Sequence record: MN013077.1
Origin: Klebsiella phage vB_KaeM_KaOmega
Direction: 5' to 3' (one strand)
Length of the DNA: 64,000 nucleotides
This document shows positions 47,410 to 60,762 of the stretch, piece by piece; the stretch's first letter is position 1, and every line of letters begins with the position of its first letter. The translations under genes were made by a program, and so were the position numbers. The notes below the pieces were generated by a model, which was not told the origin of the DNA, did no database searches, and saw only the letters and a program-made list of their open reading frames with translations.

Positions 47410-48350
47410 TTTGTGAGCCAAGGACGGCTCAGATTTCAGATCGGTTTTCGATTTGATATTTGTACCTGATATTTGTGTAGATATTTGAAATCAGATTTCA
47501 ACTCGAAATTCAATTTGAGATTTTATTTGGTATGGCCCGGCGGGCCGGAACCCAGATCTGATTTCTTTTTCAGATTTACTGACCAATGTACCAAACTGAC
47601 TGACCTTTGGTCAATACCTATTGCATCATAAATGTTACATTAAGGGGCTTATGACTCGTTAATGACACATAAACGTTACATAGTGAGAGTTATCCTCTGT
47701 CAGAAAATTTGAGGGTCTCGATCGACTTTTCATTTTGCCGATCGTATTTTCTGTACAGCCCGGCTGTCCGGGGTCTCGATAGAAAAATCGGGGTCTCGAT
47801 CGGTTTTTCGATTTCCAGATCGTATTCTCGATACAGGTACAGGTCTCACGCCGGGGTCTCGATCGAAAGTTCAAAACCCAAAACGTATTCTCAAAATCTA
47901 TACAGAGGTGAAAATCGAAATGCAAATCGTTATCATTATCACGTCGCCCGGGTCGGAATGAGAATCGTTCTCATTTGCAAATGTAACTGATAATCATTCG
48001 CATTTAGGTTGTTGAATGAGAATCATTCTCATCTCCAGAATAGCGGGCAGGTCCGGTGATTGTCTCCGGGTCAATTCTCCCCGCTATGTGTATAATATAA
48101 CCCAGGCCCGGCCCGGTGGCAAGCGTCTTTACAGTTCTTTACAAAACTATTTTAGGCGAACTACCGGCGATCCACCTTCCGACCTGGCCCCGGTGCCCGG
48201 TACGTTAGCCCCGCCTTTTCGCCGTGGGGTGGCGTCTCCTCTCCTGTATGTGTACATTATGCACCAGGCCAGCCGGGCCGTCAATACCAAAATCAAAATA
48301 AATTTTTCTTGACCCACCAGGCCAGCCGGGCCACAATGCAGGCACACCAA
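47410..48350. repeat. non-coding repeat/regulatory region
   Basis: AT-rich iterons: GATATTTG x3 and CAGATTTC x4 (47440-47570). Four GGGTCTCGATCG(A) units each followed by CGTATTYTC..TACAG (47712-47900). Two AATGAGAA-N3-TTCTCATT palindromes (47957-47975, 48015-48032). CCAGGCCMGCCGGGCC x3. Confidence 0.6.
48308..48336 (+). promoter_or_regulatory. sigma70 promoter (TTGACC-17-CACAAT)
   Basis: First promoter of the early array; GC-rich spacer. Confidence 0.5.
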
Positions 48351-48367
48351 CAAAAGGAGATCGACCC

Positions 48368-48700
48368 ATGCAACAGACGAAATATTTTATTGAAGGAACA
48401 GCCGCCGCCCACGCCGGGCAGATCCGCGCCTGCCGCTACAATAAAGAAGAGAACCGCCGGGAATGGTTCGCCGGGTTCGATAGTGTGGATCGTGGCTATG
48501 CCGTGTTTAAGATCCTCCCTGGTCCCGGCGCTGTTAAGCTGGCTGACCTGGACCCCGTTTATATTGGTGGCGTTAAACAATGCCAAGATCGCGCCGTTAC
48601 CCTGCAACAGGCAGACCGCGCCGGGCGCTATGTCATTTATGATATGGCAACGGGCAAGCCGTACCAGGAAAGCACAAAATTAAATTACAAAAATATTTAA
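48368..48700 (+). CDS. early small protein
   Basis: 110 aa; AAAAGGAG RBS. Confidence 0.5.
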   Translation: MQQTKYFIEGTAAAHAGQIRACRYNKEENRREWFAGFDSVDRGYAVFKILPGPGAVKLADLDPVYIGGVKQCQDRAVTLQQADRAGRYVIYDMATGKPYQESTKLNYKNI

Positions 48701-48708
48701 AATAATGC

Positions 48709-48737
48709 TTGACGGGGCCGACGATAGGCCCCATAAT
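48709..48737 (+). promoter_or_regulatory. strong sigma70 promoter with spacer hairpin (TTGACG-GGGCC-N7-GGCCC-CATAAT)
   Basis: Consensus -35 and -10 with a 17-nt spacer and AT-rich UP element. Confidence 0.7.
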
Positions 48738-48789
48738 TAACCACATAGCGACGCACACCGCGCCGCACTAACAAAGAGAGACCGTCATC

Positions 48790-49227
48790 ATGTTACATTC
48801 AATCAATAAAGAGCAAAAACTGTACGTCCTGAAGTGTGGCAACGGCTTTACCTGCTATGGGTTCGAAGTGCTGGACACAAACGCCCGCAAGGTTAAACAG
48901 TGGTTAGAATCTGAAGGTGCAACAGTCGAGGATCTCCCATATCGCAAGGGCACAAAGAAGCATTATAAAGCCTGTCAAGATATGATCGCCGCTGGTTGTG
49001 CTTATCATGCCAGAACGGGCAAACGCTGCCTTGCTGGACTCACCAAACAATTAAAGGGCCTGGAGGGTCGCCGGGTAGAGGTTGTCACCATGTACGGCGA
49101 AAAACGCCGCTTTATTGTGGGCCGTTCTACTGGCTGGATGCCTGCCCACTTAGAGATCGCCCGCGTCAACAGTAGCGGCGGCATGAGTGCAGAGCAGGAA
49201 TATAAATCTGTAACTATCGTAAAATAA
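48790..49227 (+). CDS. early protein (145 aa)
   Basis: Conserved leader CATAGCGACGCACACCGCGCCGCAC..GAGAGACCGT. Confidence 0.5.
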   Translation: MLHSINKEQKLYVLKCGNGFTCYGFEVLDTNARKVKQWLESEGATVEDLPYRKGTKKHYKACQDMIAAGCAYHARTGKRCLAGLTKQLKGLEGRRVEVVTMYGEKRRFIVGRSTGWMPAHLEIARVNSSGGMSAEQEYKSVTIVK

Positions 49228-49230
49228 ACG

Positions 49231-49259
49231 TTGACACCGGGGCCACCTAGCCCCATAAT
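49231..49259 (+). promoter_or_regulatory. sigma70 promoter with GGGGCC/GGCCCC spacer hairpin
   Basis: TTGACA-17-CATAAT. Confidence 0.7.
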
Positions 49260-49309
49260 ACAAACAAGCCCGGCAAATGGTGCCCGGCAAAATCAGAGAG
49301 TAAAAGAAA

Positions 49310-49531
49310 ATGGCTAAAGTAACCTATAAAAAATCACGTGGCGTTTCCTCTGTTAACCTGGCGGCGGTTGTAACCCTGCCCGCATACCGTACCCGTGACG
49401 AGGCGCGCGCCGTTGCCAGTAAGATCCGCGCCGCTGGCGTGACCCCGACAACGCCAACCAAAACGGCGGACGGCTGGCGAGTTACCGCAAAGCATAACGG
49501 CGGCACACTTTCCCGCAACACTCACCGCTAA
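49310..49531 (+). CDS. early small basic protein
   Basis: 73-aa ORF. Confidence 0.45.
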   Translation: MAKVTYKKSRGVSSVNLAAVVTLPAYRTRDEARAVASKIRAAGVTPTTPTKTADGWRVTAKHNGGTLSRNTHR

Positions 49532-49540
49532 CCAATTGCA

Positions 49541-49562
49541 GGCCCCCGGCGGGGGCCTTTCG
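49541..49562 (+). terminator. hairpin with weak T-tract (possible terminator or processing site)
   Basis: GGCCCCCG-GCGGGGGCC followed by TTTCGTGT. Confidence 0.35.
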
Positions 49563-49577
49563 TGTGGAGTCAGTAAC

Positions 49578-49922
49578 ATGACCAAACAGATCTACCATGT
49601 ACCGATCACGCCGCTTTTCCGTTGTCATATCTTTTATGACTGTAATGATCTTGCGGGGCAATGGATCGGCGATACCGATCAACAATATGATTTCCCGGAA
49701 TGGGACGAACTAAACCGCCGTGTAAGCAACGCCGCACACAATGCCGATCCTGATAGCCTGGCGGACGTGGAACACTTCCCCGGCGGGGCCGCTTGTTTTC
49801 CTTATATTGAGATCACCGCGCCAACGTGGGCGCTATGTAAAGCGATGGGCGACGCCGTGATCCGTTGCATCCTGGACAATGGCGGGATCGTCGAACCAAA
49901 AGACAACGGAATAAATATTTAA
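49578..49922 (+). CDS. early protein
   Basis: ATG at 49578. Confidence 0.4.
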   Translation: MTKQIYHVPITPLFRCHIFYDCNDLAGQWIGDTDQQYDFPEWDELNRRVSNAAHNADPDSLADVEHFPGGAACFPYIEITAPTWALCKAMGDAVIRCILDNGGIVEPKDNGINI

Positions 49923-49941
49923 ATTATTTTCGTTTTAGGGG

Positions 49942-49970
49942 TTGACGCCCGGCGGCGTTACCCTCATAAT
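49942..49970 (+). promoter_or_regulatory. sigma70 promoter (TTGACG-17-CATAAT)
   Basis: Consensus hexamers. Confidence 0.6.
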
Positions 49971-50022
49971 GTATCACATAGGGCGACGGAATAACCCGCC
50001 GCCAAAACCAAAAGGTAACAGT

Positions 50023-50262
50023 ATGCAAACCGTAATGATTAGCCACCCGGATCACGCTTCAGACTTCTACGCCCCGATTTACGCGCCGCTTGAATGGCAA
50101 CGCGCCGGACTGCAAAAAACCGCCACGGGCTACGGCACAAAGATCCCGACGTCCTACATGTTGGACTATCAAGGCAAGCGCCGCCGGATCTACGTTGACC
50201 AGTACAGCAACAGCGGCCACACTTACATAATGATCAAAGGCGAAAAAATTACGGTCTGCTAA
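50023..50262 (+). CDS. early small protein
   Basis: ATG at 50023; leader CACATAGGGCGACGG... Confidence 0.45.
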   Translation: MQTVMISHPDHASDFYAPIYAPLEWQRAGLQKTATGYGTKIPTSYMLDYQGKRRRIYVDQYSNSGHTYIMIKGEKITVC

Positions 50263-50271
50263 AAATAATTG

Positions 50272-50301
50272 TTGACCAGGGGCCGGGTTAGGCCCCATAA
50301 T
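50272..50301 (+). promoter_or_regulatory. sigma70 promoter with spacer hairpin
   Basis: TTGACC-18-CATAAT. Spacer GGGGCC-gggtta-GGCCCC. Confidence 0.7.
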
Positions 50302-50333
50302 ACCAGACATACCAAACAAACGAGGCTTTAAAA

Positions 50334-50564
50334 ATGAATCTGACTACTATCGGCGCTAACCAAACTATGATCACCCTGGCAAATGGCGCACAGGTTTTCT
50401 TTTCCTACAATACCCCGGTTGCGGCATACCTGCCCGGCGAGGGCTACTTGGTGACCGCCACAAAGCACAGCGCCACCACCTCAAAGCATGTTAACGCTTG
50501 GGCTGGCAAAGGTTGCGAGACCCGCCCACAGGAATTTTTTGATAATCTGATTAAATCCGCTTGA
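50334..50564 (+). CDS. early small protein
   Basis: 76-aa ORF. Confidence 0.45.
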   Translation: MNLTTIGANQTMITLANGAQVFFSYNTPVAAYLPGEGYLVTATKHSATTSKHVNAWAGKGCETRPQEFFDNLIKSA

Positions 50565-50590
50565 CGTTGGTTTATGCTGGGGTATATAAT
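50561..50590 (+). promoter_or_regulatory. sigma70 promoter (TTGACG-18-TATAAT)
   Basis: Consensus hexamers, no hairpin. Confidence 0.6.
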
Positions 50591-50642
50591 CCCCGGCATA
50601 GGCAAGCGAAAGCAAACAACCAAACCGAAAGGATAGTAAACG

Positions 50643-51023
50643 ATGAACATTATCAACACTGTAAACGCTAACGAAATCAAAGAAATTTCCGTAACTGGTA
50701 AACGTTGGTTCCAACGTAGCGCCGGGAACACTTACCACAGTGTAAGCCTGGCGGCGCTGGTATCCGTAGAAGTGGCGGACCGTTTAGGCGCTAACCAATA
50801 CGGAAACAAGTCCGGCGACGTGTGGATCGACCTGGCTTATGTTGGTTTCGCTTATGGGTATGAGCGCGGATTTGAACAAACCGCATTAAGTGCAATGATC
50901 GAGGCGGTGAAGGATTCCCCGGCGGCGTGGCGTAAAATGGTTTACGCTTGCCAGGCGGCGGCGGATCTGGGGGTTGTTTACACTGATAACGTTTACGACG
51001 TAAGCCGCAAAAAAGATTTATAA
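50643..51023 (+). CDS. early protein
   Basis: 126-aa ORF. Confidence 0.5.
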   Translation: MNIINTVNANEIKEISVTGKRWFQRSAGNTYHSVSLAALVSVEVADRLGANQYGNKSGDVWIDLAYVGFAYGYERGFEQTALSAMIEAVKDSPAAWRKMVYACQAAADLGVVYTDNVYDVSRKKDL

Positions 51024-51029
51024 TTGTGG

Positions 51030-51059
51030 TTGACACGGGGCCGGGTTAGGCCCCATAAT
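51030..51059 (+). promoter_or_regulatory. sigma70 promoter with spacer hairpin
   Basis: TTGACA-18-CATAAT. Confidence 0.7.
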
Positions 51060-51091
51060 ACCCGCACACCAACAGAAAAGAGATTCACACC

Positions 51092-51301
51092 ATGATCAAC
51101 GAACAGCAAGTAAACGACGTTAAACATGAGGCTTACCAGGTGGCGATCCGTAGCGGTTCCCGCGCCGCCTTTAATCTGGTTGTTGAGTTGTACCCAGAGC
51201 AGGCGCAAAATATCTTGATGCAGGTATCCGTTTTACTGGAGGCGACAAAGCACACCAAATTAAGCGCCGGGATCGACCGCCTCGCAAATAGTTTAAAATA
51301 G
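51092..51301 (+). CDS. early small protein
   Basis: 69-aa ORF. Confidence 0.45.
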   Translation: MINEQQVNDVKHEAYQVAIRSGSRAAFNLVVELYPEQAQNILMQVSVLLEATKHTKLSAGIDRLANSLK

Positions 51302-51304
51302 TTG

Positions 51305-51333
51305 TTGACATCGGGGCCACCCGGCCCCATAAT
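51305..51333 (+). promoter_or_regulatory. sigma70 promoter with spacer hairpin
   Basis: TTGACA-17-CATAAT. Confidence 0.7.
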
Positions 51334-51383
51334 CTGATACATAGCGACGCACAACGCGCCGCACAAAATAGAGAGACCGTAAA

Positions 51384-51749
51384 ATGACTACTTCCACCAA
51401 AAACACCGCCGCTACTGCCGCCGTTCGCGCTTACGTTGTATCTGTTATCGACTTTGAAGGCACCGACGCCGAAAAGCTGAAATTTTTCTTTGATACCCTG
51501 CAATCTGAATACGGGCACGAGGTTAGCCGCTTGGGTCCACAACGCGCCATCACGGAATATCTTCGCGGCCTGCCGTCGTCAATCAATCATGCTTTTATGA
51601 ATCATGAGATCCTTGATCTTTTGTCTGAATGGGGTTACATTCATTTCCACACCACAGCAGCCCAGGAAGAATGGGAGTTAGATCAGTATTGGACACGTTT
51701 GGCGGGTTCTCTGATTATTCAGGCACGTAAGCACGGGGTGATTGAATGA
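51384..51749 (+). CDS. early protein
   Basis: 121-aa ORF. Confidence 0.5.
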   Translation: MTTSTKNTAATAAVRAYVVSVIDFEGTDAEKLKFFFDTLQSEYGHEVSRLGPQRAITEYLRGLPSSINHAFMNHEILDLLSEWGYIHFHTTAAQEEWELDQYWTRLAGSLIIQARKHGVIE

Positions 51750-52060
51750 TTACAGTTCTAACCTTGATCGGGTTAGCGGCGGCGGCGCTGTACTGCGTCG
51801 CCACTTACAAGGCGTCAGTTTGGCGGAAGGGTCAAAAAATGTACGGCTATTTTGAATATGAGTACAAAGGGGAGAAGGGATCAAGCCGGGACTATGGCGC
51901 GATGTTAGAGATCGATATGGTTGGCGCTATGAATTATCGCCAGGAGTTAGGCGCGGCGATCACTTATGAAGTTTATGATCCCTCAGAAGAGAAGATCGGG
52001 GAGATAATTGATCAACGTTACTATATGGAACAGCAACAAAACAAACGCCGGAGAAAATGA
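51746..52060 (+). CDS. early membrane-anchored protein
   Basis: 104 aa with an N-terminal TM helix. Confidence 0.45.
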   Translation: MITVLTLIGLAAAALYCVATYKASVWRKGQKMYGYFEYEYKGEKGSSRDYGAMLEIDMVGAMNYRQELGAAITYEVYDPSEEKIGEIIDQRYYMEQQQNKRRRK

Positions 52061-52062
52061 GA

Positions 52063-52197
52063 ATGATTCACACTAATATTAACCGCGATAAACAACCGCG
52101 CCGCGCCCGTCTCTCATATGCTGAAGCAGGCGAGCGCCTGCAACGTGAGAAGGCCAACAAACAACAGCGCCGTAAAACGCGCTATAACTGGGAGTAA
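52063..52197 (+). CDS. tiny basic protein (44 aa)
   Basis: Found by hand; GGAG RBS. Confidence 0.25.
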   Translation: MIHTNINRDKQPRRARLSYAEAGERLQREKANKQQRRKTRYNWE

Positions 52198-52243
52198 CCG
52201 CCCCCGGCATGGAAACACCAGGCCAAACCGTTTAAACCGCACA

Positions 52244-52270
52244 GGGGGCCGCTTAGGCCCCTTATTTTTG
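52244..52270 (+). terminator. rho-independent terminator
   Basis: GGGGCC-gctta-GGCCCC followed by TTATTTTT. Confidence 0.6.
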
Positions 52271-52286
52271 ATCTACGGGGTACACA

Positions 52287-52514
52287 ATGCAAAACCTTTA
52301 CAGCATGACCGAATTTATCCGATTGTTAGCAGGTCGCCCGATGGGGTTTACCTGCCTTTACCTGGTAACCGACGGCAAAGGCTATCGTATAACGTCCAAA
52401 TCATTAGCCGCCATTGCAGCGCGGGAAGGGGTGAAGATCTCCACCTCCCAGGCGCTGATTGTGGACCCGGCGACCGTGGCGACGATTGAGGCGATCCGGG
52501 TTACCGTAAAATAA
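52287..52514 (+). CDS. early small protein
   Basis: 75-aa ORF; no dedicated promoter seen. Confidence 0.4.
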   Translation: MQNLYSMTEFIRLLAGRPMGFTCLYLVTDGKGYRITSKSLAAIAAREGVKISTSQALIVDPATVATIEAIRVTVK

Positions 52515-52538
52515 TTTAAAATATTTTCATCCTGGGGC

Positions 52539-52567
52539 TTGACGTCCGGCCCCGGTTCCCCCATAAT
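52539..52567 (+). promoter_or_regulatory. sigma70 promoter (TTGACG-17-CATAAT)
   Basis: Spacer CCGGCCCCGG. Confidence 0.65.
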
Positions 52568-52617
52568 CTAACCCATAGCGACGCACACCGCGCCGCACAA
52601 ACAAAAGAGAGACCGTT

Positions 52618-53034
52618 ATGACTTCCCCAATTTTCCGTATCAAATCAGGCTTATCGGCTTACGCATTATCTTGCGGTTACTTCCAGCGTATCGAGTCAGA
52701 GATCACCGGGGAAGATATCCGGGTTGACCTTTGGCATGAGTCGGGCCACTTCCACGCCCGCGCCCACAATTTTACAACCTCCACTCGGATCGAATGGGTA
52801 ACAGAAAGTAACCTTGACGACGCCCGCACACAATGGGCCGCGCTTGTCAAACAAATTTTTGGCGACGTGATCCGCACCATTAAAAAGGATAAGCGCTACA
52901 CCGTAAACCGTGAGTTTGCCGGAGAGTCATCACCCGCTTATGTGACCCGCTTTTGTGGCGAATGGGTATCAAACAGCGATACCGCGCCCGGCGCATGGGT
53001 AAAAGCCGCCGAACACAACGCCGAAAGAATTTAA
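52618..53034 (+). CDS. early protein
   Basis: 138-aa ORF. Confidence 0.5.
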   Translation: MTSPIFRIKSGLSAYALSCGYFQRIESEITGEDIRVDLWHESGHFHARAHNFTTSTRIEWVTESNLDDARTQWAALVKQIFGDVIRTIKKDKRYTVNREFAGESSPAYVTRFCGEWVSNSDTAPGAWVKAAEHNAERI

Positions 53035-53043
53035 AAATAATTG

Positions 53044-53072
53044 TTGACGGGGCCGACGATAGGCCCCATAAT
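53044..53072 (+). promoter_or_regulatory. sigma70 promoter with spacer hairpin (identical to the one at 48709)
   Basis: TTGACGGGGCCGACGATAGGCCCCATAAT. Confidence 0.7.
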
Positions 53073-53103
53073 ACCCACAGATAAGCAAACCGGAGTTAGA
53101 CCA

Positions 53104-53256
53104 ATGAAACATTATCTTGTAAACATTCCTGGCGTGGCTGGCCCGCTTAAAGTTTTCGGCTATGATGAACAGGACGCAAGAAAGCGCCTACGTGATCGGG
53201 AAGGTTTCGGATCACGCCTCCCACGGGGCACAAAATTTTATTTGCAAAACGCTTGA
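53104..53256 (+). CDS. tiny protein (50 aa)
   Basis: ATG at 53104. Confidence 0.35.
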   Translation: MKHYLVNIPGVAGPLKVFGYDEQDARKRLRDREGFGSRLPRGTKFYLQNA

Positions 53257-53282
53257 CGTGTGGTTATGCCGTCCCTTACAAT
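53253..53282 (+). promoter_or_regulatory. sigma70 promoter (TTGACG-17/18-TACAAT)
   Basis: Leader ACAAACGA...AACGAGG. Confidence 0.55.
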
Positions 53283-53334
53283 GACGGCATAGACAAACGA
53301 AAGCAAACCAGACAACCAAACGAGGGTTACAATT

Positions 53335-53586
53335 ATGTTTGAAGTATTCGCCGGAATGTGTTTTTATGCTGCCGCCGCTTTAAAACAGTGTGATGATTAC
53401 ACCGTTGAAGCATACGATGATCAATTAACGTGTGAGATCGTCGCCAATGGCTACCGTCAGGACCCGCGCTGGATTAACCCGGCTTGCATACCGGGGCCGG
53501 AAGTGGAAGCAATGCCGGAGGGTGATCCGTGGCTTGAACCTGTACCGCCTGCCGATCATTTCAATGTTAACCCGGCACAAAAATAA
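53335..53586 (+). CDS. early small protein
   Basis: 83-aa ORF. Confidence 0.45.
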   Translation: MFEVFAGMCFYAAAALKQCDDYTVEAYDDQLTCEIVANGYRQDPRWINPACIPGPEVEAMPEGDPWLEPVPPADHFNVNPAQK

Positions 53587-53589
53587 TTG

Positions 53590-53617
53590 TTGACGTGTGG
53601 TTATAGGTCTGTATAAT
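53590..53617 (+). promoter_or_regulatory. sigma70 promoter (TTGACG-16-TATAAT)
   Basis: Consensus hexamers. Confidence 0.6.
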
Positions 53618-53660
53618 GCGGACCTATAGACAAACGAAACGCCACCAAACGAGGCACAAA

Positions 53661-54020
53661 ATGAAATCATACGCTGAAGCTATCGCCACCCGTCCCGATC
53701 TCCTGGTAAAGGGTGATCTATTCCTTACGCTGGAGACTTTCGATTTTTCCCGTGATATCAACGGCAATACGATCAACAAATATCGCGCCGCGCTTGTCTC
53801 AGGCGACGAACAAAGCGTTTTAAACTGGTACGCCGCCGCCAATGAGCTGGAGATCCTCAAATCACCTTATCGCCGTGAACAGTCCCATAATGACGGCGCA
53901 AGCGCCGCCCTTTATCGCTTGGGCTTGCTGGGGTACGAACTGGAATACATTACCACACAATACGGCCCCGGCAAGCGCCGCGCCTATCGAATTTTCTACC
54001 GTGTAAAGAATGCAAAATAA
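53661..54020 (+). CDS. early protein
   Basis: ATG at 53661. Confidence 0.45.
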   Translation: MKSYAEAIATRPDLLVKGDLFLTLETFDFSRDINGNTINKYRAALVSGDEQSVLNWYAAANELEILKSPYRREQSHNDGASAALYRLGLLGYELEYITTQYGPGKRRAYRIFYRVKNAK

Positions 54021-54023
54021 GTA

Positions 54024-54052
54024 TTGACCAGGGGCCGGAAAGGCCCCATAAT
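54024..54052 (+). promoter_or_regulatory. sigma70 promoter with spacer hairpin
   Basis: TTGACC-17-CATAAT. Spacer GGGGCC-ggaaa-GGCCCC. Confidence 0.7.
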
Positions 54053-54088
54053 ACCAGACATACCCAAACAGGCATAAGAGGCCACAAA

Positions 54089-54268
54089 ATGAAATCATCT
54101 TTACTTTTCGCCCTGGTTGACATCGTGATCGGCAACGGTTGCGGGCAACATACTTTCATAGCTAACCGCCCCTATCCGCTGAAGTCATTGCAGGCCGACG
54201 CCCGCCTAACCGCCGGGCAGATCCGCCGCTACTTTCGTGAACCACACCCGGCAAAAAGTGCAAAATAA
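54089..54268 (+). CDS. tiny protein (59 aa)
   Basis: AAGAGG RBS. Confidence 0.35.
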   Translation: MKSSLLFALVDIVIGNGCGQHTFIANRPYPLKSLQADARLTAGQIRRYFREPHPAKSAK

Positions 54269-54271
54269 TTG

Positions 54272-54301
54272 TTGACGCCGGGCACCGTCCCGGCTTACAA
54301 T
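54272..54301 (+). promoter_or_regulatory. sigma70 promoter (TTGACG-17-TACAAT)
   Basis: Spacer CCGGG-N7-CCCGG. Confidence 0.55.
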
Positions 54302-54330
54302 GACCTCACACAAACAAACGAGGCTATAAC

Positions 54331-54627
54331 ATGCAACAGGCTAACACTCTTTTCATTCTGGCAAACGTAGCGGATCACGTCGTGGCTTCATTGTCTAACG
54401 TGGCGGGCACCGTCCAGATCATTTGCCGCCATATGGATGACAAAGCGCCGAACCGCTTACAAATCAACGTAGACCGCGCCGGGAAAGAATTTGTGATCTC
54501 TTATGACGCTATCTACAACGGCAAGCGGATCACGCAAGCAAAAAGCCAGCCTATCCCCGGCGATTTTGTCCAGGACGTGATCGCCGATATCGTAAACGAC
54601 ACGATCCCAGCGGGGGCCGCTGTATGA
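54331..54627 (+). CDS. early protein
   Basis: 98-aa ORF. Confidence 0.45.
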   Translation: MQQANTLFILANVADHVVASLSNVAGTVQIICRHMDDKAPNRLQINVDRAGKEFVISYDAIYNGKRITQAKSQPIPGDFVQDVIADIVNDTIPAGAAV

Positions 54628-54779
54628 ATCCGCATAAACTTTTAATCACCAGCTACACCAGCAAGGCGGATCGCCGTGAAACTTTGGACCGCTTAACCCG
54701 CTATTATCAGGAGGCCGGGCACAATAAGACAACCGCCCGCGCCCTGGCTAAAAAACGTTTACGTTTTGGTAAAAATTAG
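54624..54779 (+). CDS. tiny basic protein (51 aa)
   Basis: ATGA overlap with the upstream gene. Confidence 0.3.
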   Translation: MNPHKLLITSYTSKADRRETLDRLTRYYQEAGHNKTTARALAKKRLRFGKN

Positions 54780-54780
54780 C

Positions 54781-54809
54781 TTGACGCCCGGCCCGAAAGG
54801 GCCGATAAT
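54781..54809 (+). promoter_or_regulatory. sigma70 promoter (TTGACG-17-GATAAT)
   Basis: Spacer GGCCC-gaaa-GGGCC. Confidence 0.6.
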
Positions 54810-54861
54810 CTCTCACATAGGGCGGGGAATGGTTCCCCGCATTATCTAAGAGGTTATGAAC

Positions 54862-55014
54862 ATGTTTACTTTGATGACTTGGGAACACGAATCAAGCGCC
54901 CCGATCCGCCGGACCTTTGAAAACTTATGCGCTGCTTATCGCCTGGCGCAAGGCGGTTACTATAAAGCCCAAATCATCGACGAAAACAATATTGTAATGT
55001 ACGAATTTAAATGA
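54862..55014 (+). CDS. tiny protein (50 aa)
   Basis: AAGAGG RBS. Leader hairpin GGGCGGGGAATGGTTCCCCGC. Confidence 0.35.
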   Translation: MFTLMTWEHESSAPIRRTFENLCAAYRLAQGGYYKAQIIDENNIVMYEFK

Positions 55015-55043
55015 TTGACATCCGGCCCGAAAGGGCCGATAAT
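55015..55043 (+). promoter_or_regulatory. sigma70 promoter (TTGACA-17-GATAAT)
   Basis: Near-identical to the promoter at 54781. Confidence 0.6.
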
Positions 55044-55076
55044 GACCCCCACACCAAACAAAAGAGAGACCGTAAA

Positions 55077-55283
55077 ATGATTACTATGATTCTGCAAAAG
55101 TCCCGCCTGATTGATGTTACCGTCACCCTGTCCGCTTGCGGTGAATCATCCCGCCGGGCCGATCATTACCAGGTTACCGCTGTAAGCGACAACGGCGCGA
55201 TCCTGCTGTCTGAGGCGACCCCCGCGCTACATGAGGCATTTTTGACTTATTCGAAGTGGAAAGGGCCGGAAGAAATAAAATAA
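55077..55283 (+). CDS. early small protein
   Basis: ATG at 55077 with GAGAGACCGT leader. Confidence 0.45.
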   Translation: MITMILQKSRLIDVTVTLSACGESSRRADHYQVTAVSDNGAILLSEATPALHEAFLTYSKWKGPEEIK

Positions 55284-55290
55284 AAAGTAG

Positions 55291-55319
55291 TTGACGGCGG
55301 GGCCGATAGGCCCCATAAT
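55291..55319 (+). promoter_or_regulatory. sigma70 promoter with spacer hairpin
   Basis: TTGACG-17-CATAAT. Confidence 0.7.
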
Positions 55320-55353
55320 ACCACCACACCAAACGAATAAAGAGAATCACAAA

Positions 55354-55608
55354 ATGTTAAAATTCATCAAATCACTTTTCACCCGTACCGCCCCGGCTTG
55401 CAAGTTGCCACCCCTGGAGGCGAAAGGTGTGATCGCTCGCAAAGTCTCAGAATTGTTTATCATTTCATTGGTTCACAATGGCGGCGACTGTTACGAAATC
55501 ATCGAAATGGGCCGCTACACTAAAACAGGATCAAGCCGTGTCCGCTACGGTGAACACCGCGCCCGGAATCATTTTGATTCTGTATGCTGTATGGTCGGTG
55601 CAAAATAA
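55354..55608 (+). CDS. early small protein
   Basis: ATG at 55354. Confidence 0.45.
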   Translation: MLKFIKSLFTRTAPACKLPPLEAKGVIARKVSELFIISLVHNGGDCYEIIEMGRYTKTGSSRVRYGEHRARNHFDSVCCMVGAK

Positions 55609-55611
55609 ACC

Positions 55612-55640
55612 TTGACGGGGCCAACGTTAGGCCCCATAAT
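55612..55640 (+). promoter_or_regulatory. sigma70 promoter with spacer hairpin
   Basis: TTGACG-GGGCC-N7-GGCCC-CATAAT. Confidence 0.7.
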
Positions 55641-55690
55641 GTATCACACAGGGCGACACAACGCCGCCCACAAACAAAAGGCAGACCGTT

Positions 55691-56053
55691 ATGATCTTCA
55701 ATATCACCGAACTGAAAAAGAAAATGTCAGAGATGCTCTTCAATATTAGTGAATACGGGCACCCGTCCTACACTATCTTTGAGGCTGTTTTGTCAAAGTG
55801 CCAAAAGTTCGAATTAGTGATCGAGGTTGTACCGGGTCGCCTCCTGAAGTTGGGATCTGGCAAGTGGGGTTATAAACTTGATGCCTACGTCCAACAGTTA
55901 GCCGCCGGGGCCGATCCTATGGCAGATGATTATTGCGATGATGCCGACACTATCGCAAGCGTGGACGGTGAATATTGCCGGACAAAGGCGGCGCTTTTTG
56001 AAGCGATCAGCGAAGTTATCAACGAAGCAAAAGAAAACGTAATAACACGATAA
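55691..56053 (+). CDS. early protein
   Basis: 120-aa ORF. Confidence 0.5.
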   Translation: MIFNITELKKKMSEMLFNISEYGHPSYTIFEAVLSKCQKFELVIEVVPGRLLKLGSGKWGYKLDAYVQQLAAGADPMADDYCDDADTIASVDGEYCRTKAALFEAISEVINEAKENVITR

Positions 56054-56067
56054 GCTAAAAAGAATTG

Positions 56068-56097
56068 TTGACGCCGGGAAGCGTTACGGGTTATACT
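56068..56097 (+). promoter_or_regulatory. sigma70 promoter (TTGACG-17/18-TATACT)
   Basis: Spacer CCGGG..CGGG. Confidence 0.5.
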
Positions 56098-56145
56098 CTT
56101 TTCATCGGGTCACAACAGACCACAACAAACAAAGAGAGAAACAAA

Positions 56146-56223
56146 ATGAGCGTAATCTTCCTAGTATCTGTTTTCGTAGCTATTGCATCTTCTACCGCAA
56201 TTTGTATCAAACTGGGATACTAA
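56146..56223 (+). CDS. tiny hydrophobic peptide (25 aa, MSVIFLVSVFVAIASSTAICIKLGY)
   Basis: AAAGAGAGA RBS. Directly downstream of the promoter. Confidence 0.3.
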   Translation: MSVIFLVSVFVAIASSTAICIKLGY

Positions 56224-56227
56224 TTAA

Positions 56228-56620
56228 ATGACTACTTTCAACGTTTTACACTTAAACGCTTTTATCGCGGGTTACATTGAGGCAATGTTTTTTGCAGAGT
56301 CCGCCACCGATAGCGACGGCGAAGAGATCGAAAGTTTAGCCGGGTATGAGTTAAGCGCTGAAGCCCTGGACGCTGCCCGCATGGATTGTGCCCGCTTTAT
56401 GGACGTTGCGCCTCTGTTACTCAAAGGGGCAATGCTGGCAGGGGTTGACTATGACCACACCCAGGCGGGCCGGGATCTATGGTTTAGCCGTCAAGGGCAC
56501 GGCGTAGGATTCTGGGATCGCGGACTTGGGGCGATCGGTGATAAACTCCACGACGTGGCGAAGACTTTCGGATCAAAAAATCTGTTTATCAATGATGCCG
56601 GATTTATTGAGGTAGAATAA
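56228..56620 (+). CDS. early protein
   Basis: 130-aa ORF. Confidence 0.45.
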   Translation: MTTFNVLHLNAFIAGYIEAMFFAESATDSDGEEIESLAGYELSAEALDAARMDCARFMDVAPLLLKGAMLAGVDYDHTQAGRDLWFSRQGHGVGFWDRGLGAIGDKLHDVAKTFGSKNLFINDAGFIEVE

Positions 56621-57081
56621 TGAACCTTACAGATCTGAAGTATTACGACGAATTGACCCCAGCGGCGCAAGCTGAAGCCCGGCGCAACGTTGCCGCTAGT
56701 GTGCAGACTCACCACGGGCGGGAAATCGGAAAGGCGTTTTTTAAATTCCAGCGGGACCCAAACAAGGCGATCAATGACCCGCTGCACATCCGCCGGATCA
56801 TCAATGGCGGCGAAGCGTGGCGCAAGATCCGCCAGGAGGGCGACGCCTATCTAATCCGCTTTATCCGGTCCAATAAAGTGATCTTTACTGATTGCGGGGC
56901 GTATGTAGCGTATGTGGACGCCTTCACAATGTTTATTGATGGGTTGGAATACATACCCACAGCCGAACAGCAAAAGACTCTTAGAACGCCTTACATCGAC
57001 GTTAACGGGCGGGGGCCTGCGTTTCATGATTGGCTATACCGTATGCACCACAAAATAAAGTTTTTCATGATCCGGGGTTGA
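56620..57081 (+). CDS. early protein
   Basis: 153-aa ORF. Confidence 0.5.
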   Translation: MNLTDLKYYDELTPAAQAEARRNVAASVQTHHGREIGKAFFKFQRDPNKAINDPLHIRRIINGGEAWRKIRQEGDAYLIRFIRSNKVIFTDCGAYVAYVDAFTMFIDGLEYIPTAEQQKTLRTPYIDVNGRGPAFHDWLYRMHHKIKFFMIRG

Positions 57082-57106
57082 CACCCGGCGGAATAGGGCC
57101 GATAAT
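57078..57106 (+). promoter_or_regulatory. sigma70 promoter (TTGACA-17-GATAAT)
   Basis: Leader hairpin GGGCGGGGAATGGTCCCCGG, as at 54820. Confidence 0.6.
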
Positions 57107-57159
57107 GTCTCTCATAGGGCGGGGAATGGTCCCCGGCCCAATGAACTGGAGTCAGTACA

Positions 57160-57411
57160 ATGGAAATCAAACACGTAATTTCTGCAAACGTCGCCGTTTT
57201 AGGTTCTGTAAGTGAAACCCGTGTGAGTCTGGCGAAATGGTGCGCCGCTCAAACTTTCGGGAGTTACGGCGAAAAGGTAACAGAGGTTAAGCGCTTGCTT
57301 TCCTTTGGCAACGTGGGCCGCAAGTTGTTAACAGAGGATATCGCCCGCCGGGTTGAGATCCATTATTCACTTGCTCAAATCATCGTAAAAGAGATCGAAA
57401 GCGCAATTTAA
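57160..57411 (+). CDS. early small protein
   Basis: 83-aa ORF. Confidence 0.45.
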   Translation: MEIKHVISANVAVLGSVSETRVSLAKWCAAQTFGSYGEKVTEVKRLLSFGNVGRKLLTEDIARRVEIHYSLAQIIVKEIESAI

Positions 57412-57449
57412 CCCGGCCCGGCCCCGAAAGGGGCCAAAAGGAAAATAAA

Positions 57450-57629
57450 ATGACTTATTTCAGAAACTTAGAAAACGGGCATTATTACACCATATCCGCC
57501 GGGCGGGTTCGTTGGTGGCTGGATCATTCTGCCGTGTGGGTCCGTAGTGAACATCTAAAGCCGTGTGACCTTGCCCACTATCCGTATATTGGAACCACCA
57601 CCGGACCAGGGGCCGAAAATGGGCGCTAA
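57450..57629 (+). CDS. tiny protein (59 aa)
   Basis: Preceded by a GGCCCC-gaaa-GGGGCC hairpin with no promoter hexamers. Confidence 0.3.
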   Translation: MTYFRNLENGHYYTISAGRVRWWLDHSAVWVRSEHLKPCDLAHYPYIGTTTGPGAENGR

Positions 57630-57843
57630 TACCCGCAACCGCTACGGCATAACGCGCCGTTTCGGGGTCTGCTATATGCTGGCAGATGATCCACAATACA
57701 GGGCATTGCTGGAGGCTTACCAGGTCACCAAACTGGACGCCCAAAAGGGCCGGGCCGAACATGCCGCCCACGTAGCGAACATCAAAGCGTTACACGAATT
57801 TTTAGCCGTCGCTGAAAAGCGCCACGACATCCGCCACCGTTGA
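57619..57843 (+). CDS. small basic protein
   Basis: ATG at 57619 overlaps the upstream stop. Confidence 0.35.
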   Translation: MGANTRNRYGITRRFGVCYMLADDPQYRALLEAYQVTKLDAQKGRAEHAAHVANIKALHEFLAVAEKRHDIRHR

Positions 57844-57854
57844 GAGTGCAAACC

Positions 57855-58049
57855 ATGATCACAGAATCCGAGATCCGCCAAACGTTAGCCGCCTTGCGTT
57901 ACCTCCACGCCTTGCGCCGGGCAAGTGATCCGACTTATGCCGGGTCATGCCTGGCTAACGATGCCGAAAACGGGATCGCCACACTGAAAGAATTAAACGA
58001 CCGCATGAGCGACAGCGACCGATCCGACTTCATAGGGGGCGAAATATGA
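57855..58049 (+). CDS. small protein
   Basis: ATG at 57855. Confidence 0.4.
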   Translation: MITESEIRQTLAALRYLHALRRASDPTYAGSCLANDAENGIATLKELNDRMSDSDRSDFIGGEI

Positions 58050-58246
58050 TCGACTTATCCGGCGTGAAGCCTGGCGATCTGGTCTGGGCCTTTGACTATC
58101 CGACCGATCCACCGTATGACGTTTGCAACGCTTGCAAACTGGAGTATTTGAACACCGGGAAAAATGAGTACCAGTTACGCCGCCCGGATAACGGCGTGAT
58201 CGTTTACTTTCGCTACATCGCACCAATTGAAGGGGCCAAACCATGA
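58046..58246 (+). CDS. small protein
   Basis: 66-aa ORF. Confidence 0.4.
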   Translation: MIDLSGVKPGDLVWAFDYPTDPPYDVCNACKLEYLNTGKNEYQLRRPDNGVIVYFRYIAPIEGAKP

Positions 58247-58557
58247 TCGCCATTACGCCAACCGTTTTAGATTGGTATCGCCAACAGATCGCGCCGCCGC
58301 TGGCTATCTTCAAACAGGCAGAAAGCAAACAGCGCCGGATCTCCATTCATGAGATCATCACCCTTAACGCCGGGGCGGTCCCGTTCAATCCTGGGGCGGG
58401 TCGCAACATGGGCAACACGTTAGCGCTTTTGAGTTTACGCCGGAAACGGTCCGCCCTTACCTTGGATTCACTCCGCATGATGGGAGATCCGCACCGGGTA
58501 ACAGGTCGCCGGATCGCCAGGGCCTGGGAACGGGCAAACGGTCGAAAGGTTGTATAA
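58243..58557 (+). CDS. hypothetical basic protein
   Basis: 104-aa ORF. Confidence 0.45.
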   Translation: MIAITPTVLDWYRQQIAPPLAIFKQAESKQRRISIHEIITLNAGAVPFNPGAGRNMGNTLALLSLRRKRSALTLDSLRMMGDPHRVTGRRIARAWERANGRKVV

Positions 58558-58975
58558 AATAACAGTGTTTACAGGGGTTGAATTGTTCGCCCCTTTTTGT
58601 TATCCTTTTTTCATGCGATGGCACCTGATGCAGGGGGAGACAAACACCGGACCTGCCCGCTATTCAGGAAGGCGGACCGGACCTGGGTCTCTCCGGATAG
58701 ATGAGAATGGTTATCATTCCCAATCAAATCAAATACATACTTTCAAACCGTTGTCAAATTTATTTCGTACTCCTGTATAAATGTACATGGTTCTAAAACG
58801 TCCTGAATCGCGTTTTAAGCCGTTTTCCCCTTACCCGGTATCCTACATCATAAAAATATAGATCTCTCGAAATCGGACTTTCGCACTTTTTGCCCTTGCA
58901 AACGTAAAAATTTTATGTTAGACCTGAAGGGCTGAAAGCCGGGTTTACGTTGACAAAACTTTACAATTCTCCCTA

Positions 58976-59003
58976 TTGCATCGATCCGCCATTGTGCTAT
59001 TAT
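58976..59003 (+). promoter_or_regulatory. candidate sigma70 promoter (TTGCAT-16-TATTAT)
   Basis: Upstream of gene 59057; leader is of the GGGCGGC family. Confidence 0.4.
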
Positions 59004-59056
59004 TTATCACGTAGGGCGGCAATGACGCGACGGCCCGCAGAGAGGAGACAGTAAAA

Positions 59057-59428
59057 ATGAACCTGACCAACTTCAACCGCTACTACATCCGCGACGAACA
59101 GGCAAACGCTTTTGGGTACGATCGTTCGTTCGAAATGCAACAGCACGTAGGCGGCGCAAAGTTACACGTTGAAACTGTTACCTTTGAAAACTATTTTATG
59201 GCGACCTTTGACAATGGTTTACAGATCTCCATTGAGTACAAAGGCGGCGTGATGACTCTCGCCACTGAGGATAAATTCCGCAAAAAAGATCTTTTGAATC
59301 ATCCAGGTTTTGCCAGCAACAAAGAATTATTGATTAAAATTTATATCCGCTGGGTAGTGGGCCGCATCGCAACAGAAGAGCAGATCGCCGCCCTGGTGGA
59401 TCTGGCTCTGAATCTGGATTTAAATTAA
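59057..59428 (+). CDS. early protein
   Basis: 123 aa; GAGAGGAG RBS. Confidence 0.5.
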   Translation: MNLTNFNRYYIRDEQANAFGYDRSFEMQQHVGGAKLHVETVTFENYFMATFDNGLQISIEYKGGVMTLATEDKFRKKDLLNHPGFASNKELLIKIYIRWVVGRIATEEQIAALVDLALNLDLN

Positions 59429-59431
59429 TAG

Positions 59432-59460
59432 TTGACAAGGGGCCGGAAAGGCCCCATAAT
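59432..59460 (+). promoter_or_regulatory. sigma70 promoter with spacer hairpin
   Basis: TTGACA-17-CATAAT; identical core to the promoter at 54024. Confidence 0.7.
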
Positions 59461-59505
59461 ACCCACTCAAGCAACAAACCACTAAGAACACTGGAGACCG
59501 TAAAA

Positions 59506-59820
59506 ATGACCAAATCTAAATTTTTCGAAATGCTGGATCGCTACCTGTCAAGCCATAACGAGTGGGCCAAACTTGGCAACGGTTACGACTCATACAAGGC
59601 CGAACAGTTAAAACCTTATGTTTTCCATGAGGACCCGGCGAACCTGGAGAAATGGAAAGCTAAAGATCCGTCCTATCCTTGGACCGCTCACGCTTCAGGT
59701 TTTACCCTGGCTGATTGTTGGCATGTTGAGGTAATGCAACATAAAACCGCTGAAGCGGCAGAAAAGCAAAACAAAATTTTCACCCGCTGGATCGCAGACT
59801 ATCAAAAGGCCCGCGCTTAA
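59506..59820 (+). CDS. early protein
   Basis: 104-aa ORF. Confidence 0.5.
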   Translation: MTKSKFFEMLDRYLSSHNEWAKLGNGYDSYKAEQLKPYVFHEDPANLEKWKAKDPSYPWTAHASGFTLADCWHVEVMQHKTAEAAEKQNKIFTRWIADYQKARA

Positions 59821-60065
59821 TGTCCCGGCTTTTTAAAATCAATCTTCCATTGTGGGCCGCTTTAGCGGTCCTCATTGCCTTTTTTGGCGATACGGTCAAC
59901 AATTGGATTTTGTCCGCTGTACTTGGACCGGATCAACTGGTCACAACATTTTTAAACGCTTTCGGCGCTACACTGGCAACGGCCCGCCTTGCCTATCGTG
60001 GCAAATCAATAAACCGTTATGATCTGGCGCTATCACTGCCCGCCCTGGTTACCTGCCTAAACTGA
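59820..60065 (+). CDS. membrane protein
   Basis: 81 aa with two TM helices. Confidence 0.45.
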   Translation: MSRLFKINLPLWAALAVLIAFFGDTVNNWILSAVLGPDQLVTTFLNAFGATLATARLAYRGKSINRYDLALSLPALVTCLN

Positions 60066-60067
60066 AG

Positions 60068-60093
60068 AGGCCCGCCACCCCGGCGGGCTTTTT
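60068..60093 (+). terminator. rho-independent terminator
   Basis: GCCCGCC-acccc-GGCGGGC followed by TTTTTGTT. Confidence 0.75.
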
Positions 60094-60122
60094 GTTGCAT
60101 CCAGATCCGTGACCTGTTATAA
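60094..60122 (+). promoter_or_regulatory. sigma70 promoter (TTGCAT-17-TATAAT)
   Basis: Near-perfect consensus. Confidence 0.65.
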
Positions 60123-60169
60123 TACTTACTCACCCGGCAACCGGGCCAAACAACTGGAGACCGTAAAAC

Positions 60170-60370
60170 ATGACAACCGCCAACCGCCTGATCGATGTTC
60201 TGAATGATGCAAAGGCAAACCGTTTAGCCGTGGCAATCAAAGAAGAGGCAAACGGGCTGATCCTGGCAAGTGTTACCGATGGCTGTTACACTGAATCATT
60301 CCATGCTGATACACTGGAGTATCTCGCCCACAGATTAGAAATGATCGTTGACGATTGGCGGCTATTGTGA
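60170..60370 (+). CDS. last small protein of the rightward array
   Basis: 66-aa ORF. Confidence 0.45.
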   Translation: MTTANRLIDVLNDAKANRLAVAIKEEANGLILASVTDGCYTESFHADTLEYLAHRLEMIVDDWRLL

Positions 60371-60385
60371 TCCGACCAAACCAAA

Positions 60386-60414
60386 CAGGCCCGGCATAGT
60401 CCGGGCTTTTTAGT
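60386..60414 (+). terminator. rho-independent terminator
   Basis: GGCCCGG-cata-GTCCGGGC followed by TTTTTAGTG. Confidence 0.65.
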
Positions 60415-60666: not shown

Positions 60667-60697
60667 TTGACACTATTTATTCATTTATCTGCATAAT
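60667..60697 (+). promoter_or_regulatory. candidate promoter (TTGACA-17-TGCATAAT) in the non-coding region
   Basis: No downstream ORF. Points toward the inverted-repeat-flanked element. Confidence 0.3.
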
Positions 60698-60762
60698 GCG
60701 AGAATGATTATCATTTACAATCAATAACTTAACTTTTTATTGACTTCTGACAAAACACGGTT

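Follow-up and report, generated by a model that had tools for sequence, protein, structure and literature searches.

Why should short early genes that are unrelated to one another begin with 5′ leaders that are nearly the same? The question is raised by the early region of Klebsiella phage vB_KaeM_KaOmega (sequence record MN013077.1), of which a stretch of 64,000 nucleotides (nt), here called the window, was analysed. The leaders in question are parts of repeated promoter cassettes placed before small genes. A preliminary description of positions 48738-57160 had drawn attention to three families of them; the array is larger than was stated there, with 23 cassettes between 48309 and 60170. We lean, with modest confidence in the two parts taken jointly, to the reading that these cassettes are analogues of the PeSL cassettes of T4-type phages to which a 5′-terminal hairpin has been added, most likely protecting the 5′ end of the mRNA. 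Sequence comparison establishes the anatomy and conservation of the cassettes, the co-varying hairpin arms and the recombination breakpoints, whereas the transcription start, the action as RNA and the stabilization are inferred. In this hyperplastic early-gene array every small gene or short operon has a cassette of its own. It starts with AT-rich upstream sequence and a sigma70-type promoter, in most cases with a GC stem-loop that lies in the spacer or spans the -10, and continues with the leader, the Shine-Dalgarno sequence and the first codons. On this reading the leader families are ancient paralogues of the part of the cassette that is transcribed.

Promoters and leader families of the early array

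Over positions 48000-58000 the window is 97% identical to Enterobacter phage SS-2025, 91% to vB_ExiM_F1M1E and 84-90% to Cronobacter phages PBES02, CR3, CR8 and CR9 and Pectobacterium phages phiTE and CB7. These relatives are placed in Certrevirus, Vequintavirinae, wherever a taxonomy line is given, and the genes under the match are all annotated as 'hypothetical protein'. Judged by these matches, the window is that of a Certrevirus (Vequintavirinae) myophage. The typical promoter of the array consists of an AT-rich upstream stretch followed by TTGAC, 17-18 nt and CATAAT. The exact pattern is matched 20 times in the window with 0.8 matches expected, and a scan of 47800-60600 with a looser consensus returned 36 promoter-like sites (14.6 expected), 21 of which are strong promoters of the + strand that agree with at least 10 of 12 consensus positions each. 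In 22 of the 23 cassettes the 25 nt upstream of the promoter are 56-88% A+T. The spacer of most promoters contains a GGGGCC...GGCCCC stem-loop that folds with -10 to -15 kcal/mol, and in three promoters the stem-loop encloses the -10 hexamer (Table 1). Such spacer stem-loops, which are a hallmark of PeSL cassettes, would exist only in DNA or in read-through RNA.

The genes behind these promoters encode 25-153 amino acids (aa), and the gene content of the region varies between close relatives (8 Certrevirus genomes). For 19 of the 20 early proteins tested no Pfam family exceeded the threshold; the exception is a T4 Gp30.7-like protein encoded by the gene at 59057, and one sub-threshold SPOR match was seen among the 20. 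The promoters have already been described: an early motif, AAAA(N3-4)TGTTGAC(N17-19)TATAAT, was reported in CB7, CR3, CR8 and CR9 (Buttimer et al., 2020, PMC7344957), and it corresponds to the promoters seen here, amid the short hypothetical genes of that region. The leaders were not described. That paper treats the promoter only, and the words leader, hairpin and stem-loop are absent from it.

Three leaders form the tightest family (A). The 25-mer CATAGCGACGCACA(C/A)CGCGCCGCAC occurs only at 48744, 51340 and 52574, without a mismatch and with no occurrence expected (100 shuffles). In local alignments of entire leaders the scores are 64-79, where the shuffled null reaches at most 29, and a repeat finder independently recovers the family as the 77-nt family D6. 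The proposal of a near-identical family at three sites is thus borne out, and the identity of the leaders extends well past the ribosome binding site instead of being confined to it. The three A leaders of the window sit behind three different promoter spacers. Within the 19-nt core, 11 of 16 A copies have the same sequence.

The second family (B) is looser. Five leaders, at 49977, 54816, 55647, 57113 and 59010, have C(A/G)(T/C)AGGGCG in common, and the count of this motif alone is marginal (5 found, 1.4 expected). All five copies are on the + strand, start exactly 6 nt past the -10 hexamer and continue into GC hairpins of differing sequence. The family had also been called near-identical; the start motif, the position and the hairpin are indeed shared, while the hairpin sequences are not. 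The coordinates given for it were right to within a few bases, although the copy at 59011 falls outside the 48738-57160 to which the description was assigned. The promoter of the B4 cassette (Table 1) reads TTGCAT, 16 nt, TATTAT, with an extended -10.

The leaders that had been grouped as a third family (C) are A/C-rich, of low complexity, and split in two. Those at 50302 and 54302 have 16 identical nt, ACAAACAAACGAGGCT, in common (score 33), and those at 50591, 53283 and 53618 share ATAGACAAACGAAAGC (repeat families D11 and D14). With alignment scores of 28-41 they barely exceed the 99.9th percentile of the null (25), and the proposed family is only partly borne out, since two low-complexity sub-families take the place of one. 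A further shared unit is the ribosome-binding-site block GAGAGACCGT(A/T)A(A)-ATGAC, which is present in the three A leaders and in those at 55044, 59461 and 60124 (families D12 and D15). Its core pattern GAGWYCGTWR has 8 matches in the window (1.6 expected), 5 of which precede early start codons. The module continues into the Met-Thr or Met-Ile start of unrelated genes, and its ACCGT part has no evident complementarity to the 3′ end of 16S rRNA.

Position, structure and conservation of the leader hairpins

Throughout, the transcript start was taken as the 7th base after the -10 hexamer, an assumption based on the usual spacing. Counted from there, the leaders of 11 of the 23 cassettes begin with a hairpin: the three A copies, the five B copies, type E at 49268, type F at 56108 and one at 60133. 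They are 42-47 nt long and fold with -5.4 to -18.7 kcal/mol, whereas the other 12 leaders are 23-46 nt long and unstructured. These 11 transcripts are predicted to open with (C)AUAG and to pass directly into the GC-rich hairpin, after which a U-poor, A/C-rich open linker would lead to a free ribosome binding site. Among the bases of the leaders T accounts for 8.8%, compared with 22% in the region, and A for 51% of the part outside the hairpin. Downstream of the hairpin all leaders are unstructured, with the Shine-Dalgarno sequence and the AUG unpaired in the predicted folds, the exception being a weak second helix in the leader at 48738.

The strongest single regularity is the fixed placement of the hairpin relative to the -10, with an onset 10-12 nt past the hexamer in the 11 hairpin leaders of the window. 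Of 38 unique A/B leader variants, drawn from 11 Certrevirus genomes and 3 metagenomic contigs, 37 have exactly 6 nt between the -10 hexamer and C(A/G)TAG, one has 5 nt, and the hairpin sets in at transcript position 1 to 6. The number of unpaired nucleotides left at the 5′ end is 0-5 in the hairpin leaders of the window and 0-7, with a mode of 4, in other genera.

This arrangement recalls the stem-loops in the 5′ untranslated regions of ompA and papA that stabilize mRNA in E. coli (Emory, Bouvet and Belasco, 1992, as reviewed in PMC3997798). Both RppH and the 5′ sensor of RNase E require single-stranded 5′ ends, which accounts for how 5′ stem-loops stabilize mRNA (PMC3997798). As in ompA and papA, a stable hairpin lies near the predicted 5′ end, an accessible ribosome binding site follows it, and structure tends to be kept while sequence varies, although within type A the sequence is almost invariant. 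The phage leaders differ in that they have no sequence similarity to these elements, that their stabilizer role is a predicted one, that A, B1 and B2 leave 3-5 predicted unpaired 5′ nucleotides, and that type A is conserved in sequence far beyond the needs of a purely structural element. By this analogy, the 5′-terminal stem-loop would limit the access of RppH and of the RNase E 5′ sensor and so lengthen the life of a subset of early transcripts, and the open linker would keep translation initiation efficient.

The hairpins had been proposed as translational or stability regulators. They are real and conserved, but nothing in them points to an action on the ribosome binding site; since they lie at the extreme 5′ end and leave the Shine-Dalgarno sequence free, a role in stability is more plausible than translational occlusion, which was rejected because the Shine-Dalgarno sequence and AUG are unpaired in the predicted folds. 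Intrinsic termination was likewise rejected: no U run follows the hairpins, the sequence after them is A/C-rich, and none of them is among the terminator-like sites listed.

Comparison of the families suggests selection on the structure. Types A and B2 are built on one 19-nt frame, with 7 pair positions and a loop of 5 nt, ACA(C/A)C, within which two pairs differ by CG-to-GC changes on both sides. In an 11-sequence alignment of this frame 84% of cells are paired. Shuffles give 68%, none of the 500 attaining the real value, and slid partners give 56% at most. The same was found when arms were swapped among 25 distinct hairpin leaders of four genera, from Certrevirus, FV3, phi92, ZCKP1 and phAPEC8: cognate arms fold to a mean of -11.8 kcal/mol and non-cognate pairs to -7.7 kcal/mol (0 of 5000 permutations reach the observed value). 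The two arms of the hairpins co-vary. Orthologous hairpin leaders are 0.93 identical, close to codon positions 1 and 2 (0.94) and above both codon position 3 (0.825) and orthologous leaders without a hairpin (0.85).

It is possible to ask of the same leaders whether they resemble each other by recent copying. The identity of A leaders is 0.915 for the same locus in different genomes. Within one genome, leaders of different loci reach 0.859, and those that differ in both locus and genome reach 0.858; the corresponding values for B are 0.943, 0.648 and 0.664. Leader likeness thus follows the locus and not the genome, which identifies the families as old, maintained paralogues. Concerted evolution and recent duplication were rejected, since paralogous A leaders are equally alike within and between genomes. 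That intergenic DNA was recently duplicated or gene-converted, leaving the similarity as a neutral trace and the leader itself functionless, is in our judgment very unlikely. Recombination between cassettes clearly occurs and could keep copies alike without selection, but besides the lack of any sign of recent homogenization among the paralogues, the hairpin leaders diverge less than synonymous sites, their arms co-vary, and the design persists over two subfamilies that are otherwise diverged in sequence.

Several points weigh against a protective hairpin at the 5′ end. Its terminal position rests on the usual spacing between -10 and start, and at that spacing RppH may still act on the 3-5 unpaired nucleotides of A, B1 and B2. 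Twelve of the 23 cassettes are without a hairpin, and no gene feature examined accounts for which. The co-variation of the arms rests on few independent historical events. The near-invariant core of A exceeds what a generic stabilizer needs. Lastly, the fold of the antisense strand is at least as stable as that of the sense strand in 20 of 30 hairpins overall. The hairpins of A, B1 and B2 contain a single internal mismatch, A.C or C.A (A.A in three copies), which on the antisense strand becomes a G.U wobble, making the antisense fold about 4 kcal/mol more stable. With this asymmetry, the comparison of strands lends no support to an action of the sense RNA. Avoidance of U in the leaders may explain why A.C is used in place of G.U.

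The asymmetry of the folds leaves room for readings at the level of DNA or antisense RNA. The palindromes could act in DNA or in read-through transcripts, as recombination hot spots or cruciforms, as operators or as attenuators of the PeSL type, which we consider unlikely. PeSL stem-loops do attenuate transcription and have recombination mapped inside them (PMC2839356), the breakpoints observed here lie in cassettes as well, and the promoter spacers are also filled with GC palindromes. However, without U runs past the leader hairpins, and with terminator-like sites not enriched, attenuation is poorly matched, and an onset that is fixed relative to the -10 fits a function at the transcript end better than one in recombination. 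The leader hairpin is retained in phi92, ZCKP1 and phAPEC8 despite AT-rich spacers free of palindromes, and sense-strand G.U pairs exist, although only in hairpins of the phi92/ZCKP1 type. A single operator protein is at odds with the different stems that coexist in one genome.

The conserved core leads to another alternative, namely that the hairpins are sequence-specific sites for a phage or host RNA-binding protein that controls a subset of early mRNAs by shut-off, processing or antitermination, similar to the targets of T4 RegA/RegB or to lambda nut/boxB. We hold this to be unlikely. It would account for the identity of the A core and for paralogues that are equally alike between and within genomes, for the start C(A/G)UAG(G)GCGG common to four genera, for the exactly one internal mismatch kept in A, B1, B2 and the phiTE variants, and for the presence of a hairpin in only about half of the cassettes, as expected of a sub-regulon. 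On the other hand, one genome holds at least five different stem and loop sequences side by side (loops ACACC, AAUAAC, UGG, AUGG and others), so that a binder would have to read structure; A and B are freely exchanged at orthologous genes, which suggests that the types are equivalent; and the Shine-Dalgarno sequence and AUG are outside the element. Antitermination in particular would find little to override, since a pattern scan for terminator-like sites revealed no enrichment (18 found, 18.2 expected).

The likeness to lambda-type nut boxB and HK022 put is that hairpins stand early in early phage transcripts. Here there is no boxA-like partner, no GNRA-like pentaloop and no Rfam match, the two-stem put element, about 70 nt long, has only one short hairpin as its counterpart, and nearly every gene has its own promoter, with few canonical terminators. 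CsrA-type GGA loops, boxB-like loops and the B1 loop AAUAAC, which resembles the T4 gp43 operator loop, were considered and rejected as not general across the types. Rfam 15 at gathering thresholds returned no match over the whole window, and with permissive filters over 47500-62400 only a chance-level Trp_leader match at 60350 (E = 0.45). The literature search did not find the leader-hairpin element described in any paper. The C(A/G)UAG-plus-hairpin leader may, on a tentative view that we regard as unlikely, be an undescribed cis-acting RNA family of rV5-, phi92- and phAPEC8-like myophages that is read by a specific phage or host factor. Were that so, the leader would do more than stabilize 5′ ends generically, a subset of early mRNAs would be marked for a common fate, such as protection during host mRNA destruction, timed shut-off or processing, and specific recognition of the hairpins would define a new phage post-transcriptional regulon. 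The cassettes also offer a small natural set of parts (strong promoter, 5′ hairpin, U-poor linker and ribosome binding site) with which to examine the tuning of early mRNA life and translation by phages.

Distribution, exchange and relation to PeSL cassettes

Leader A was found in 24 phage records, all of them Certrevirus, at 1-4 places per record. In IMG/VR a 14-base pattern (-10 hexamer plus CATAGGGCG) gave mostly chance hits among the matches listed, and of the 22 loci matched by a 16-base A pattern none were relevant except those on contigs of Certrevirus size. The design itself reaches further. The B3 leader matches phi92-like E. coli phages at 80% identity, and phi92 (Justusliebigvirus), ZCKP1, phAPEC8 (Phapecoctavirus) and FV3 (Vequintavirus) have the same leader design: a sigma70 promoter, 6 nt, C(A/G)TAG and a GC hairpin such as GCGGGAAUAGUUCCCGC or GGGCGGCAAUGGUGCCGCUC, behind promoter spacers that are AT-rich and without palindromes. 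One leader of this design matched 159 phage records at up to 10 places each. Across genera, one gene may carry a hairpin leader in one phage and none in another. In the stretch of phAPEC8 (JX561091) that was fetched, six 20-mers annotated as 'putative promoter determined with PHIRE' (e.g., GTAGGGCGGCAATGGTGCCG) are leader hairpins that sit immediately past a sigma70-type -10 hexamer. They were labelled promoters because they are repeated, and neither their placement after a host-type promoter nor their stem-loop nature was noted; the promoter annotation is probably a misreading, and we reinterpret these 20-mers as leader hairpins.

The preliminary description held that the coding sequences behind similar leaders are unrelated and that promoter and leader were copied together as units. 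The proteins downstream of the cassettes are indeed unrelated, with a best pairwise blastp E-value of 0.16. The second statement was partly right. Leaders do move between unrelated genes, but promoter and leader reassort independently: in the window the similarity of spacers shows no correlation with that of leaders (Spearman 0.065, p = 0.30; permutation p = 0.24), and the 48709 spacer is reused at 53044 with an unrelated leader. Since the two similarities are uncorrelated, the exchangeable units are smaller than promoter plus leader, and copying of both as one unit was rejected.

Exchange is visible at several loci when the downstream proteins of 8 Certrevirus genomes are clustered. In five genomes leader A precedes the 138-145-aa gene at 52618, whereas CR3, phiTE and CB7 have a B-type leader there. 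Most genomes place B1 before the 79-aa gene at 50023, but CR8 has the A hairpin, in a hybrid leader where it is followed by the B1 ribosome binding site. At 55691 the leader is B2 in the window and A in CR9, and an unrelated gene found there in other phages is preceded by B in three of them and by A in CR3. Orthologues with A in some genomes and B in others were found in protein groups 3, 8 and 17/31. Conversely, at the second array position three unrelated genes (145, 147 and 75 aa; groups 1, 24 and 25) stand behind the same leader A. At four or more loci the homology blocks between phages stop at the TTGAC box or at the ATG (Table 1). Among the Certrevirus genomes compared, the 121-aa gene at 51384-51749 is present only in the window, where it replaces a 128-129-aa gene of all the others. 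Its homologues (~35% identity) are in phi92, ZCKP1 and phAPEC8, within arrays rich in such leaders, and those of ZCKP1 and phAPEC8 carry the hairpin leader, which points to exchange between phage subfamilies. Homologous recombination between cassettes, possible because they resemble each other, would swap leaders, generate hybrids and replace the orphan genes that lie between, as is known of PeSL cassettes.

PeSL cassettes have been described in the T4-type phages RB49/phi1, PST and nt-1 (Arbiol et al., 2010, PMC2839356; Comeau et al., 2014, PMC4122927). The cassettes of the window share with them a sigma70-like early promoter preceded by AT-rich sequence, a stem-loop of the form GGGG...CCCC in the -35/-10 spacer or over the -10, a 3′ Shine-Dalgarno sequence with start codon, about 100 bp of overall conservation, clustering in regions rich in orphan genes, and indel or replacement breakpoints inside cassettes, including the part from -10 to ATG. 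They differ in lineage, which here is Vequintavirinae/Stephanstirmvirinae and not T4-like, and since the window belongs to a Certrevirus of the Vequintavirinae, the likeness is one of design and not of common descent, an analogue instead of a homologue. They differ also in that about half of the cassettes add a transcribed leader hairpin at a fixed distance from the -10 and in sequence families. The idea of mobile promoter cassettes that shuffle orphan genes thereby covers, besides T4-type phages, a second large group of enterobacterial myophages, and several of these serve in biocontrol and therapy.

Feature coordinates and sequences flanking the array

The features are collected in Table 1. 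The type F leader precedes a 25-aa hydrophobic open reading frame (ORF) at 56146-56223 (MSVIFLVSVFVAIASSTAICIKLGY) that is conserved in 8 of 8 Certrevirus genomes compared and is the first cistron ahead of the 130-aa and 153-aa genes.

Table 1. Coordinates of cassettes, stem-loops, homology breakpoints and related features (positions in the window unless a record is named).
Feature	Position	Strand	Remarks
Whole array	48309-60170	+	23 sigma70-type cassettes before small, mostly Pfam-less genes
A cassette, 145-aa orphan gene	48709-48789	+	promoter 48709-48737, leader 48738-48789, hairpin 48748-48766 (GCGACGCACACCGCGCCGC)
A cassette, 121-aa gene	51305-51383	+	hairpin 51344-51362
A cassette, 138-aa gene	52539-52617	+	hairpin 52578-52596
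B1 cassette, 79-aa gene	49942-50022	+	hairpin 49982-50003 (GGCGACGGAATAACCCGCCGCC)
B2 cassette, 120-aa gene	55612-55690	+	hairpin 55651-55669; 19-nt architecture as in A, compensatory pair changes
B3 cassette, 52-aa gene	54781-54855	+	hairpin 54817-54845, core GCGGGGAATGGTTCCCCGC; type also in phi92-like phages
B3-like cassette, 83-aa gene	57078-57159	+	hairpin 57113-57143, -18.7 kcal/mol, 5′-terminal bases paired
B4 cassette (CGTAGGGCGG...), Gp30.7-like gene	58978-59056	+	weak hairpin 59011-59038
Type E hairpin leader cassette, 73-aa gene	49231-49309	+	hairpin 49268-49288; kept in 8/8 Certrevirus genomes compared
Type F weak-hairpin cassette, conserved 25-aa hydrophobic ORF	56068-56145	+	hairpin 56108-56121
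C1 cassette	50561-50642	+	inverted repeat encloses -10; long A/C-rich leader without hairpin, related to 53283 and 53618
C1 cassette (ATAGACAAACGAAAGC...)	53253-53334	+	stem-loop spanning -10 hexamer
C1 cassette, 119-aa gene	53590-53660	+	gene only in window, P7_Pc and (first bases) DU_PP_I
Short unstructured leader cassette	50272-50333	+	ACAAACAAACGAGGCT in common with 54302 leader
Short unstructured leader cassette	54272-54330	+	partner of 50302 leader
Short leader cassette	55015-55076	+	carries ribosome-binding-site module GAGAGACCGTAAA-ATG
Ribosome-binding-site module GAGACCGT(A/T)A(A)-ATGAC	51373-51392, 52609-52626, 55066-55085, 59494-59514, 60157-60178		enters first codons
Example spacer stem-loops	48714-48732, 50279-50297, 54789-54804	+	GC stem-loop between -35 and -10
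Stem-loops enclosing -10 hexamer	50573-50600, 53265-53291, 53604-53626	+	promoters 50561, 53253, 53590
Breakpoint	48785-48803 / resumes 49219-49231		ATG 48790; TTGAC 49231
Breakpoint	51309 / resumes 51743		TTGAC 51305
Breakpoint	53583 / resumes 54085		TTGAC 53590; ATG 54089
Breakpoint	55606 or 55679-55689 / resumes 56046-56058		TTGAC 55612; ATG 55691
phAPEC8 (JX561091) PHIRE features	11713-11732, 12352-12371, 13241-13260, 14257-14276, 15111-15130, 15543-15562		leader hairpins

A scan of the window for transfer RNA and tmRNA found none, and a tandem-repeat scan gave nothing relevant. Repeats of other kinds flank the array. A 34-nt inverted repeat, 94% complementary, at 48034-48067 and 58636-58669 (10.6 kb apart) brackets most of it. 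The left copy lies on the - strand behind a promoter-like site at 48122-48094, from which a leftward transcript would open with CATAGCGGGG...CCCGCTAT, forming a long-range stem; the repeats may represent small RNAs, or else the leaders of transcripts that diverge. A palindromic motif of 24 nt (GAATGAGAATCATTCTCAT...) is present in seven copies, at 47918-48037, 58699-58722, 60953-60976 and 61188-61246, which cluster at both array ends and in the non-coding 60400-61500. Their core GAGAATCATTCTC resembles GATAATCATTATC, the core of the Fur box, and they may be operators or iterons. Left of the array, three 54-nt direct repeats (GGGGTCTCGATCG...GTATTCTC...), ~70% alike and spaced by 63-78 nt, occupy 47711-47905. 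To the right, no convincing genes are seen over the long stretch 60400-62300, whose homologous counterpart in phiTE is non-coding as well, and it holds two copies of TTACGTTCCCACGG(A)TCAAGGGA (~60766 and ~60862) together with recurring GTGGGAA and CTCTTCAGG motifs.

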